Part shown: piece after piece, positions 9,187 through 63,108 of the stretch
Layout: the number at the start of each line of letters is the position of its first letter
How positions within the stretch are numbered: position 1 is the stretch's first letter
Origin: Escherichia phage BF17
Reading direction: 5' to 3' (one strand)
Sequence record: MW822008.1
Length of the DNA stretch: 64,000 nt
Position numbers and translations under genes: made by a program
The notes under the pieces: model-generated
Told to the model about the DNA's origin: nothing
The model's database searches: none
What the model saw: the letters and a program-made list of their open reading frames with translations, nothing else

Positions 9187-9212
9187 GACGTATCAGAATT
9201 CGGTGATATAAT
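9184..9212 (+). promoter_or_regulatory. candidate early promoter (extended -10)
   Basis: TGAGAC ... 17 nt ... TGATATAAT; -10 lies inside GGTGAT/ATCACC inverted repeat. Confidence 0.35.
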
Positions 9213-9570: not shown

Positions 9571-10201
9571 CAGTGCATATGTAATCGGTATTATTATTTC
9601 TGGTATGCTTGCATATAACTATAACCGAAGTGTTCTAGGTTATGTAGTACTTGGTACAGTACTAAGTCCAGTGATTGCCATTGGTCTTCTTGTTATGCTA
9701 GGTGAGAAAAATACAAGCTTCTTTATTACTAAAGAACTTGATAAAATCACTCCAGCACCAGAAACAGTTATTCCAGAAGTTAAAGAAGAAGTTAAAGAAG
9801 AAGTTAAAGAAGAAGTTAAAGAAGTTGAAGTTCAAATGCAAGTTAAAGTGTATAATACACTTGAAGAAACTGATCCTAAAGTTGTAGTGAATGTAGTTCC
9901 AGTCGTTGAAGATGTGAAACCAAAAGCTCCTAAAGTACAGAAAAATACTAAAACTGCAAAGAAAGCTCGTTACACTAAAGGTAAGAACAAAGGTAAATCT
10001 AAGGATGAACCACAACTAGGTGTTCATGACCATACTGCACAAATTGCAACGGCAGCGACCGCAGCAGCAATCGTAACATCACCAATCTACAACAATGATG
10101 ATTACAGTGATTATAGCCGTCACAGCAGTTCTTCCTCTGATTCTTGTTCCTATGATAGCTCTAGTTCTGATTCAAGTTCATCGTCTGGAAGTTGTGATTA
10201 A
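9548..10201 (+). CDS. membrane protein with EVKE repeats and Ser-rich C-terminus
   Basis: 217 aa; two N-terminal hydrophobic helices; (EEVK)x4 from 12-bp tandem repeat; C-terminal SSSSDSxS tract. Confidence 0.55.
   Translation: MLTPIILSSAYVIGIIISGMLAYNYNRSVLGYVVLGTVLSPVIAIGLLVMLGEKNTSFFITKELDKITPAPETVIPEVKEEVKEEVKEEVKEVEVQMQVKVYNTLEETDPKVVVNVVPVVEDVKPKAPKVQKNTKTAKKARYTKGKNKGKSKDEPQLGVHDHTAQIATAATAAAIVTSPIYNNDDYSDYSRHSSSSSDSCSYDSSSSDSSSSSGSCD
9779..9824 (+). repeat. 12-bp tandem repeat (GTTAAAGAAGAA) about 4 copies, in-frame
   Basis: Direct reading of sequence; encodes VKEE repeats. Confidence 0.8.
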
Positions 10202-11001: not shown

Positions 11002-11745
11002 ATGAAACACTTCTTAGAAGTAACTGTACCTGATGATAAAGATTTATACATTGTAGGTGATTTGCATGGTAATGGTAAACTATGGGATGCTACAGTGAAA
11101 GAATTTGGTATTACACACAATGATTATGTTTTCAGTGTAGGTGATATTATCGACCGTGGAGAACAAAATTCAAAGCTCCTTTTTGAATTTTTGTTCGGAG
11201 AAAATCGTTACATGATTGCGGGTAATCATGAGATGATGTGCGTTGATTCGGAAACACTTCGAGATTGGTATCATTGTTGGATAAGTAATGGTGGTGATAA
11301 ATTCCTTGATGAAGTTGGAGGAACAGGCATTCAATTCTTTCGTCAGTACTTAAAGGATCTCCCTATGATTATCCAAATCAATCACCGAGGATTGAAGATT
11401 GGGTTAGTTCATGCTGGAGTTCCGTTGGAATATACAACATGGGAACGATTTGTTAATGGGACAAAATCACTTAGTGCTGATATAATTGATAAGTGCTTGT
11501 GGGATAGAAAAACATTCGATTATTGTAGAACTAATAATACATATTATGCACCTAAGTTAGATGGAGTGCATTGTGTCTTTAGTGGACATACAGCAGTTAC
11601 AGACCCACTCATTTACGGTAATCGCATTTGGATTGATAGTCAGTTCTTGACGGGTGACTTAACTCTCGCTACTCCACAAAGTGGTGGGATGAGATACTTA
11701 CGTAAAGAAAAAGATGAGTACTCATTCAATCGTTTCAAAAGGTAA
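11002..11745 (+). CDS. Ser/Thr protein phosphatase (PPP-family metallophosphatase)
   Basis: GDLHGN, GDIIDRG, GNHE motifs of calcineurin-like phosphatases. Confidence 0.75.
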   Translation: MKHFLEVTVPDDKDLYIVGDLHGNGKLWDATVKEFGITHNDYVFSVGDIIDRGEQNSKLLFEFLFGENRYMIAGNHEMMCVDSETLRDWYHCWISNGGDKFLDEVGGTGIQFFRQYLKDLPMIIQINHRGLKIGLVHAGVPLEYTTWERFVNGTKSLSADIIDKCLWDRKTFDYCRTNNTYYAPKLDGVHCVFSGHTAVTDPLIYGNRIWIDSQFLTGDLTLATPQSGGMRYLRKEKDEYSFNRFKR

Positions 11746-26148: not shown

Positions 26149-26178
26149 TGGGACATTATGTCCCATACATGATATAAT
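26149..26178 (+). promoter_or_regulatory. early promoter with palindromic TGGGACA upstream element
   Basis: GGGACA - 17 nt - TGaTATAAT; 19-bp palindrome ATGGGACATTATGTCCCAT. Confidence 0.55.
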
Positions 26179-51370: not shown

Positions 51371-51399
51371 TGGGACATTATATGTTCCAATGATATAAT
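51371..51399 (+). promoter_or_regulatory. early promoter with TGGGACA upstream element
   Basis: GGGACA - 16 nt - TGaTATAAT; near-identical to promoter at 26149. Confidence 0.55.
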
Positions 51400-59986: not shown

Positions 59987-60319
59987 ATGCTAAATCTAGT
60001 TATCCAAGGTAATGTTGATATTACTCCAGCAATCAATGACGCAATTCATGCTGAAGCAAATGCACTAACGAAGTTTAGTGATTCTTCAGTACTGCATATT
60101 GGTGTTCATGTGAAGAAAGAGCATAAGAATCAATATTTCGTAACTTTAACATCAGGCGGTAAGAGTGTTACAGCCGATGATGCAGATTTATACAAAGCAA
60201 TTGGTGATTCATTTGAAAAAATGGAAACTGTCTTAGGTAAAGACAAAAGCATCAAATTGTATCGCCGTAACCACCCCGAACATCCAGTTCAAGAAGACTT
60301 GACTGAAGACGAAGAGTAA
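59987..60319 (+). CDS. hpf: ribosome hibernation factor / RaiA-like (S30AE family)
   Basis: 110 aa; I.GNVDIT, GG...A..DLY.AI pattern and acidic C-terminal tail resemble HPF/YfiA. Confidence 0.65.
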   Translation: MLNLVIQGNVDITPAINDAIHAEANALTKFSDSSVLHIGVHVKKEHKNQYFVTLTSGGKSVTADDADLYKAIGDSFEKMETVLGKDKSIKLYRRNHPEHPVQEDLTEDEE

Positions 60320-60373: not shown

Positions 60374-60790
60374 ATGAATTATGTTTGGGCAGATGTAGTA
60401 AAATCTCTCGTATCAACACATGATGTTGATTTACCAGATAGTCTGGTATTTAACAGATGGTACTATCCAAACCCAGAGGACTGTAACGTTGGAATTGGAT
60501 TTTTTATTAATGATAAATCTAATTTGTTTGGATTAATTGAAGATGAGACAAAATCCAACCTTATATTCTCGATTGAGTTGAATGCTGATCACATAAAATA
60601 CTACACCAATAAAATGGACGAAGACGATGGAGATGTTATAATCCCAGCAGAAATAGACGAAGCTTCATTTTTTCAGTTATCATTGATTTATGATCTATCT
60701 AACATTACTTATGATAATGTGAAAGACCTTTTTATATTGTACAATAAAATGTATAATTACTTTTTAAGACCTTTTTATATTGTACAATAA
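60374..60790 (+). CDS. hypothetical protein (3' end within tandem duplication)
   Basis: 138-aa ORF; last 7 codons supplied by second copy of 43-bp repeat. Confidence 0.5.
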   Translation: MNYVWADVVKSLVSTHDVDLPDSLVFNRWYYPNPEDCNVGIGFFINDKSNLFGLIEDETKSNLIFSIELNADHIKYYTNKMDEDDGDVIIPAEIDEASFFQLSLIYDLSNITYDNVKDLFILYNKMYNYFLRPFYIVQ

Positions 60791-60809
60791 AATGTATAAT
60801 TACTTTTTA
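60724..60809 (+). repeat. perfect 43-bp tandem duplication (2 copies)
   Basis: AGACCTTTTTATATTGTACAATAAAATGTATAATTACTTTTTA repeated head-to-tail. Confidence 0.9.
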
Positions 60810-60825
60810 TAACAGAGGAATTGTA

Positions 60826-61011
60826 ATGGAATATACCATATGTGTAATTGTATGTATCATAGCCTTACTCGCAGGAGTTGGTGTGATGATTTACTGTGAT
60901 GCGGAACCAAGTACTGAAGTAGGTACAACCATCACACTTAAACCTGGTGTTAAAATTAATGATACCTATTGCTACAATCCAAACACAAACCGCTATGAGA
61001 TTTGTTTATGA
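60826..61011 (+). CDS. small membrane protein
   Basis: 61 aa, N-terminal hydrophobic helix. Confidence 0.45.
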   Translation: MEYTICVIVCIIALLAGVGVMIYCDAEPSTEVGTTITLKPGVKINDTYCYNPNTNRYEICL

Positions 61012-61415
61012 GAACATTCAACATTGATTATATAATTGATTCGATTGCAGAACATATGAAAAACATAAGTAAAAACGAGCCTGGTTTTTACTTCAACTTA
61101 GATAAACTCCATCGCAATACCAATGTATCTAGTTTTAATCGTGCTAAGAAACTTTACATCCGTATACATAACCTTTGGTACAGTGACGATACGTTGATGA
61201 TAGATATTACTGTTGATGAAGACATAACATTAAGATACATTGACGATTTTAAATCAGATGATATTCGTGCTGGATCATTACCAATTGATGCTTCATATGA
61301 AGAATATCTGCAATACCAGTTCATTGATGACACATTTGGATTTGACTTTGATCTATATAATAGTATAATGAACGTATACCATATATACGAAAGGAATTTG
61401 AATGGACATTCGTAA
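61002..61415 (+). CDS. hypothetical protein
   Basis: 137-aa ORF. Confidence 0.5.
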   Translation: MFMRTFNIDYIIDSIAEHMKNISKNEPGFYFNLDKLHRNTNVSSFNRAKKLYIRIHNLWYSDDTLMIDITVDEDITLRYIDDFKSDDIRAGSLPIDASYEEYLQYQFIDDTFGFDFDLYNSIMNVYHIYERNLNGHS

Positions 61416-61824
61416 AATACCAAATTTCCACAGTACATTAAGGTTCTTTTCTGAACAAGAAATCAGTACTGAAAGACGTGGCTTGATTTCATACAATCAT
61501 CATCGTGTTATGTACACTAATCATTTCCAGGGTACAGTTCGTATTAAATTTCGTAATGCACTCGACGACAATGATGAATTGTTAATTTTACTACGAAAAA
61601 GTAAGATAGAATTGACATACGCAACTCACCATATTGAAAGTGAGTTGATGTGGCACACACTATCAAAAAAAGAAGGGTCATTACCAGTTGATGATAATGG
61701 ACCAGAAACACTTGATCAGTACATGTTCATTGATGATACATTTAGTATTGACTATCCATCATTTCAGTGTATACTAGCTATACATAAAAAATATTACGAC
61801 CGTCTACGTGACAGATTAATTTAA
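61402..61824 (+). CDS. hypothetical protein
   Basis: 140-aa ORF. Confidence 0.5.
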   Translation: MDIRKIPNFHSTLRFFSEQEISTERRGLISYNHHRVMYTNHFQGTVRIKFRNALDDNDELLILLRKSKIELTYATHHIESELMWHTLSKKEGSLPVDDNGPETLDQYMFIDDTFSIDYPSFQCILAIHKKYYDRLRDRLI

Positions 61825-61835
61825 TTGGAGGCATT

Positions 61836-61958
61836 ATGATTGCTATGTTAGAAGAAGATTGGGGTGTTTCCGAGCAAGGCACTGATGAATATGAATACCC
61901 AGAATATAAGCCTAAAGGCTTTTGGGAACGTTTGCGTGATTGGTTGATGGGGGAATAA
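61836..61958 (+). CDS. possible small ORF (40 aa)
   Basis: ATG 4 nt after GGAGG; fills gap before CCA-enzyme gene; not in track. Confidence 0.3.
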   Translation: MIAMLEEDWGVSEQGTDEYEYPEYKPKGFWERLRDWLMGE

Positions 61959-63079: not shown

Positions 63080-63108
63080 TGGGACAAGTTAACATCTTCT
63101 GATATAAT
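63080..63108 (+). promoter_or_regulatory. early promoter with TGGGACA upstream element
   Basis: GGGACA - 16 nt - TGaTATAAT. Confidence 0.5.

Follow-up and report, generated by a model that had tools for sequence, protein, structure and literature searches.

A small gene of Escherichia phage BF17 (record MW822008.1) carries at its 3' end a perfect head-to-tail duplication of 43 bp that adds seven residues to the C-terminus of its product. Analysis of a 64,000-nucleotide stretch of this genome (hereafter the window) and comparison with related phages make it likely that this duplication has a single origin, and that it has been inherited and recombined across backgrounds with an effect that is small or nil. 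It is probably an ordinary inherited polymorphism, near-neutral, and the allele is already present, uncommented, in public genomes.

TRF analysis of the 64-kb window detected an array at 60723–60809 with a period of 43, 2.0 copies and 100% matches. Its score (174) was the highest in the window, the runner-up being a 12-mer array (score 100). The 43-mer AAGACCTTTTTATATTGTACAATAAAATGTATAATTACTTTTT, searched with up to 3 mismatches, was found at exactly 2 sites in the window, which are the two copies listed in Table 1, and at 0 sites in 100 dinucleotide-preserving shuffles. These data confirm the perfect 43-bp head-to-tail duplication proposed in the original prediction, whose start at 60724 is an equally valid phasing. 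The periodicity extends by one base on the right side (A 60809 = A 60766) and stops at 60722 on the left side (A, versus T at 60765). Since the match extends just one base beyond the unit, the microhomology at the breakpoints does not exceed 1 nt, and simple slippage between flanking repeats is therefore no explanation for the duplication. A 9-bp direct repeat present in the ancestral sequence, CTTTTTATA, was considered as a source of slippage and rejected because it would give a 32-bp and not a 43-bp duplication. Elsewhere in the window, the 12-mer array is a perfect tandem repetition of AGAAGTTAAAGA (9775–9824, 4.2 copies, TRF score 100).

Table 1. Positions in the window of the features of the duplicated locus and of the promoter-like motif of the phage (aa, amino acids).
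Feature	Position	Strand	Remarks
HPF/RaiA homologue	59987-60319		Upstream of the 60374 gene; Pfam PF02482
Gene for the 138-aa protein of PHROG 36582 (unknown function)	60374..60790	+	Ancestral length 130-131 aa
Copy 1, AAGACCTTTTTATATTGTACAATAAAATGTATAATTACTTTTT	60723..60765	+	Encodes the conserved C-terminus ...KDLFILYNKMYNYF(L); single-copy homologue in all relatives
Copy 2, identical to copy 1	60766..60808	+	One base out of frame: RPFYIVQ + stop; remainder now intergenic
12-bp perfect palindrome TATTGTACAATA	60735..60746	.	Inside copy 1, coding
Palindrome TATTGTACAATA, second	60778..60789	.	Inside copy 2
TATAAT hexamer, copy 1	60752..60757	+	TG directly before; no matching -35
TATAAT hexamer, copy 2	60795..60800	+	25 nt to ATG 60826; deleted in SRR30543657
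Derived codons 132-138 (AGA CCT TTT TAT ATT GTA CAA = RPFYIVQ)	60767-60787	+	Copy 2, shifted frame
Derived codons with new stop TAA	60767..60790 (TAA 60788-90)	+	Tail also in P0001-P0008
Ancestral stop TAA, now out of frame	60810..60812	+	13-14 nt before the next ATG in single-copy relatives, beside the Shine-Dalgarno
AGAGGA, putative Shine-Dalgarno of the 61-aa gene (by eye)	60814-19	+	
61-aa gene, PHROG 4189	60826..61011	+	Hydrophobic N-terminal stretch, putative transmembrane segment (by eye)
Motif GGGACA-N13/14-TGATATAAT	1688-1715, 11458-11486, 26150-26178, 51372-51399, 63081-63108	all +	

As 43 equals 3 × 14 + 1, the frame reads through the old stop, and the protein gains RPFYIVQ and ends at a TAA within copy 2. 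The C-terminus of the 138-aa ORF is ...KMYNYFLRPFYIVQ, also written ...KDLFILYNKMYNYFLRPFYIVQ, and its codon 131 (TTA, 60764–66) spans the junction between the two copies. The gain of the tail, the new stop and the wider gap between stop and ATG can be read directly as consequences of the duplication. The frame shift and the RPFYIVQ extension had been correctly predicted: single-copy relatives all end with ...YNYFL or ...YNYFI before the stop, and the predicted single-copy ending ...MYNYFL was seen directly in TH47.

Megablast assigned the window to the Asteriusvirus jumbo coliphages of the PBECO4/121Q group, the nearest records being vB_Ec-M-J (97.5% over 1.5 kb), EC.P1 and WPEC5. Relatives were fetched and aligned by BLAST anchoring on the 83 nt upstream of the repeat, and single-copy alleles, looked for in these related genomes, were present in TH47, PBECO4, 121Q, G17, UE-S1, fEgEco12, CMSTMSU and JNE01. 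In the first five of these phages, one copy was found at the same position, colinear on both sides and followed directly by TTATAA. The protein ends with ...KLYNYFL in 121Q, PBECO4, UE-S1 and G17, and with ...KMYNYFL before the stop in JNE01 (~77% nucleotide identity). In fEgEco12 and CMSTMSU, the single copy gives a protein ending with ...YNYFI, and the sequence enters a 500-bp cassette after TTACTTT. When a 161-nt query was compared by BLAST with 34 GenBank records, 4 of the 34 (vB_Ec-M-J, A4, WPEC5 and EC.P1) aligned colinearly and in one piece through both copies, and about 30 spanned 117–118 nt or less, corresponding to one copy. Only one or two copies were seen in these 34 records and in 10 further loci. 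The same query gave no match in complete E. coli genomes.

The junction itself (TTACTTTTT followed by AAGACC) is identical in the window and in the four GenBank phages vB_Ec-M-J, EC.P1, WPEC5 and A4. The same junction was detected in 7 further assemblies from NCBI, ENA and Logan (loci L015 and L017–L022), and it is thus present in 12 of 12 carriers, window included. These further carriers are the E. coli draft assemblies GCA_973721985, GCA_036253495, GCA_011911785 and GCA_012813795, the ENA metagenomes ERZ27302919 and ERZ28616714, and the Logan run SRR30543657. A collection of 5.8 billion proteins yielded 12 clusters, 8 with the tail (P0001–P0008) and 4 ending with ...YNYFL; in cluster P0007, RPFYIGQ is found in place of RPFYIVQ. 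Individual carriers differ by small post-duplication changes: an A>G in copy 1 of EC.P1, a T>G in copy 2 of ERZ28616714 (V>G), and an extra T after copy 2 in vB_Ec-M-J. In SRR30543657 (L020, ~2915–2935), a 12-nt deletion in copy 2 removes TGTATAAT and leaves the duplication in place; this deletion could be real or an effect of the assembly. An exact 32-mer scan for the junction in IMG/VR viral contigs and a 22-mer scan in GTDB genome contigs gave no match. The sole match in JGI metagenomes (L014) was discarded as a chance 22-mer match, the gene being absent and the flanks visibly unrelated.

The carriers are otherwise far from uniform. Copy 2 is followed by at least six distinct sequences, one of which is the 500-bp cassette (EC.P1 and WPEC5), and upstream the carriers fall into two different proximal haplotypes, ERZ28616714 being TH47-like yet duplicated. 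The HPF gene is 97–100% identical to that of the window in the vB_Ec-M-J group and 85% in the A4-like group (A4 and the loci of P0002, P0003, P0005, P0006 and P0008). The corresponding values are ~99% and 88–90% for the gene body, 90–99% and 76–80% for the 61-aa gene, and 90–94% and 73% for the two paralogous genes that follow. Comparison of haplotypes showed that A4-like carriers are identical to the window from ~45 nt before the repeat through both copies. In TH47, a single-copy phage, both neighbouring genes are 98–99% identical to the window, and all combinations of duplication state and flanking haplotype occur. Repeated formation of a junction devoid of flanking microhomology is unlikely, and a single origin is thus favored. 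Together, the shared junction, the six or more downstream contexts and the divergent flanks indicate that one origin followed by recombinational spread, with possible losses, is the most likely history.

The original prediction had taken the perfect identity of the copies as the sign of a very recent event. This dating does not hold, given the 11 other carriers and flanking genes that are as low as 73–85% identical to the window. Even across single-copy genomes whose other sequences diverge by more than 15%, no more than ~3 positions of the 43-bp unit vary. The two copies thus remain alike because this unit hardly changes, also where it is single, and their perfect identity is uninformative about age.

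These observations are consistent with the following sequence of events. A small accessory gene would have acquired, once and at its 3' end, a 43-bp head-to-tail duplication, by illegitimate recombination or by replication slippage, with at most 1 nt shared by the breakpoints. As suggested by the mosaic haplotypes, the allele would then have been passed on by descent and carried to many backgrounds when co-infecting relatives underwent homologous recombination. Recombination between the two copies may have removed it on occasion. Its phenotypic effect would most likely be small or nil, the allele persisting as a polymorphism.

Loss was considered because gene bodies are identical between some single-copy and duplication alleles (P0009 = P0002 and P0012 = P0006). 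Moreover, locus L019 (an NCBI E. coli draft, two copies) and the Logan contig L023 (one copy) show 0 mismatches in 5.4 kb except for a 43-bp gap. Clusters P0009, P0010 and P0012 come from Logan only, and the Logan contigs L016 and L023 were fetched. Short-k-mer graph assembly, as used for Logan, could collapse a 43-bp tandem repeat. L023 may be such a collapsed repeat, and its difference from L019 is either a very recent loss or a collapse by the graph assembler. Since these single-copy twins come exclusively from Logan assemblies, recurrent loss of the duplication is plausible but unproven.

One observation counts against neutrality: the duplication-bearing segment of ~135 nt is identical across lineages that differ by 12–27% in their flanking genes. 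This could equally be an indication that the two-copy allele is a selected variant, the tract having been swept by recombination across these lineages. Its advantage could come from the seven-residue tail, from the spacing between stop and start, or from the extra promoter-like sequence upstream of the 61-aa gene. Such a selective sweep is unlikely in our view, and single origin with inheritance, recombination and little or no effect is preferred.

A regulatory benefit, which we regard as quite unlikely, would be a more specific form of adaptation. The duplication could supply an additional weak promoter or an upstream element rich in A/T. Alternatively, it could put distance between the upstream stop and the Shine-Dalgarno of the 61-aa gene and thereby uncouple translation of this gene. 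The effect in question would drive the spread of the allele among lineages. The presence of the allele on very divergent backgrounds within an identical short tract is compatible with this proposal. Each copy contains a perfect TATAAT within TGTATAAT, the second one in a workable geometry relative to the ATG of the 61-aa gene, and a weak sigma-70-like site that did not exist before (TTAAGA-18-TAAAAT, 60764–60793) is formed at the junction. The -10-like element predicted in each copy therefore does exist, but its reading as a promoter finds no support beyond the hexamer. A consensus scan for a -35 with at least 4/6 matches at 16–18 nt found none for either TATAAT, the best candidate being TTTTTA (3/6). 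The extended -10 TGnTATAAT is absent at both hexamers, since TG abuts TATAAT and is one base short. TATAAT occurs 73 times on the + strand of the window (33.6% G+C), and the sigma-70 consensus scan of the window returned 31 sites for 25.8 ± 5.3 expected, that is, no enrichment. Furthermore, TH47 has TACAAT where the window has TATAAT, and the hexamer of copy 2 is deleted in SRR30543657 while the duplication is kept.

Another signal recurs in this phage. The promoter-like motif GGGACA-N13/14-TGATATAAT has 5 exact sites in the window for 0.01 expected from shuffles. Those of the sites that were read in context are each followed at a short distance by an apparent start codon, and the motif probably represents the phage's own strong promoter class. 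It is missing from the 43-bp unit, which argues against a regulatory role of the duplication; the nearest site is the last one listed in Table 1. Looser variants of the motif were noticed at 9204, 16932 and 57745. A literature search for mapped transcripts or promoter studies in Asteriusvirus found none; what has been published for the related phage CBB is limited to motifs predicted by MEME (PMC5259590). As a separate observation, the segment 60299–60355 begins within the terminal part of the HPF/RaiA gene with a near-consensus TTGACT-17-TATAAT. This is followed immediately, just upstream of gene 60374, by an 11-bp G+C-rich hairpin with a T-run (AAAGGGACAGAG...CTGTCCCTTTTCTT). The records of G17 and UE-S1 label the hairpin a terminator, and it is unusual for a promoter to abut one.

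With respect to translation, the upstream stop precedes the ATG by 13–14 nt in single-copy genomes, where it lies beside the Shine-Dalgarno, and by 35 nt in the window. Judged from this spacing, altered translational coupling of the downstream gene is conceivable. RNA folding of the one-copy and two-copy regions was no better than that of shuffles (z = -0.7 to -1.8), which also weighs against a regulatory effect. The doubled TATTGTACAATA permits a predicted 12-bp RNA stem between the copies that is not significant (z = -1.8), and the Rfam search returned only sub-threshold eukaryotic noise. TATTGTACAATA was also rejected as a dispersed operator: it is not enriched, with 3 sites in the window at ≤1 mismatch, a number reached by 8 of 100 shuffles. 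Nucleotide-level constraint was tested through synonymous-site differences, which show a slight and statistically weak drop at the 3' end of the gene (5–16% versus 11–30%, small counts).

The seven added residues could also matter for the protein itself. Conservation of this protein is highest in its C-terminal 40 residues, and a hydrophobic seven-residue tail may for this reason not be innocuous. RPFYIVQ would change activity, partner binding or stability, and the two alleles would form a balanced polymorphism, an adaptive scenario at the protein level that is very unlikely. In its favor, 8 of the 9 different protein variants with the tail have it unaltered, and an excess of non-synonymous differences in the N-terminal two-thirds fits changing selection. 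Over 60374–60640 (N-terminal 88 codons), comparison with 121Q/PBECO4 gave 23–24 replacements versus 9 synonymous differences among ~60 conserved codons, and these counts suggest fast or diversifying evolution of the N-terminal two-thirds. However, conservation of the tail is automatic, as it is a copy of a highly conserved coding stretch, and cluster P0007 already carries a V>G change. The protein also has no known function, fold or partner: Pfam gave no match for gene 60374–60790 or its neighbors except the upstream HPF/RaiA gene, PHROGs matched only families of unknown function, and the AlphaFold2 model (13-sequence alignment) had a mean pLDDT of 39 and was unusable. Finally, the gene is absent from WPEC3, indicating that it is dispensable at least in this background. 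WPEC3 (L007, 2820–3060) also encodes a 61-aa protein version that differs in its N-terminal segment.

The locus belongs to a region with the gene order LysM-lysozyme, HPF/RaiA, gene 60374–60790, 61-aa gene, two paralogues, 40-aa gene, CCA-adding enzyme and NUDIX hydrolase. The two paralogues (61002–61415 and 61402–61824) are adjacent, overlapping genes for proteins of ~137–140 aa (PHROG 20693, BLASTP E = 5e-9). From such relationships, this part of the genome appears to grow by local gene duplication. Paralogy of the tail-bearing protein with the neighboring ~137-aa genes or with the cassette gene was examined and is not claimed, the BLASTP values (E = 0.04 and 1.2) being not significant. The 500-bp cassette consists of a 372-nt and a 126-nt gene (123-aa and 41-aa proteins), is found in relatives at L002 (2292–2822), L006, L008, L009 and L013, and has its insertion point at about window position 60806, exactly after the unit. 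Its 41-aa protein is a paralogue of the product of the 40-aa gene of the window (61836–61958; 70% identity, E = 4e-17).

The proximity of the cassette raises the idea that the duplication is a scar of its insertion or excision, either as a target duplication or through unequal crossover between cassette-plus and cassette-minus genomes. The cassette begins after TTACTTT, 2 nt short of the end of the unit, and in EC.P1 and WPEC5 copy 1 ends as in the cassette-minus type (TTACTTT-TT) and copy 2 continues into the cassette-plus type (TTACTTT-ATATGA). This origin is nevertheless highly improbable. The duplication is found with the cassette in EC.P1 and WPEC5 but without it in the window and 9 other carriers, and single-copy genomes likewise occur with the cassette (fEgEco12, CMSTMSU and JNE01) or without it (121Q and others). 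No copy of the unit is present at the far end of the cassette, both copies lying on the same side, and the EC.P1 arrangement is just as well accounted for by an independent duplication with later recombination. Lastly, an assembly artefact in the window genome, which the original prediction had named as the finding that would overturn it, has next to no chance of being the explanation: 11 other assemblies share the junction, and they were produced independently by various laboratories in several countries with several pipelines (Irish, Chinese and Thai phages in GenBank, E. coli drafts, ENA metagenomes and Logan). Moreover, assemblers tend to collapse such repeats rather than create them.

Short frame-shifting tandem duplications arise from slipped mispairing or illegitimate recombination, the classical example being the frameshift mutants of phage T4 (Streisinger model). 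As in these T4 duplications, the copies described here are head-to-tail, the unit has a length that three does not divide, the downstream frame is shifted, and relatives show the ancestral allele with one copy. Unlike the T4 slippage cases, the unit is long (43 bp) and the breakpoints share at most 1 nt. Moreover, the duplication lies at the very end of the gene, where it extends the protein and does not destroy it, and in contrast to the T4 laboratory mutants it is a persistent natural polymorphism. The locus also resembles phase-variable repeats (contingency loci), in that alleles differing by one unit coexist in close genomes and copy number changes the frame. However, the copy number among ~45 genomes is always one or two, the unit measures 43 bp and not 1–10 bp, and the sole pair with an identical background (L019/L023) includes a possibly collapsed Logan assembly. 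A third comparison is with PeSL elements, reportedly described by Arbiol et al. in 2010 as promoter-containing repeat cassettes at module boundaries of T4-type phages. Here too a short, repeated, A/T-rich sequence with a -10-like hexamer is located where relatives differ by a gene cassette. In contrast to PeSL, the unit is not dispersed (2 copies in 64 kb), has no -35 and no stem-loop and is mostly coding, and duplication and cassette occur independently.

The comparison carries a warning, as a 43-bp tandem repeat may be collapsed unnoticed in short-k-mer graph assemblies, which makes single-copy calls from such sources unreliable. For annotation, the 137/138-aa "hypothetical proteins" of vB_Ec-M-J, EC.P1, WPEC5 and A4 correspond to an ancestral 130–131-aa protein with a derived tail. 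Beyond annotation, the importance of the duplication is small. The locus nonetheless provides a tidy example of short-tract exchange among mosaic jumbo-phage genomes, for which the junction is a convenient marker.
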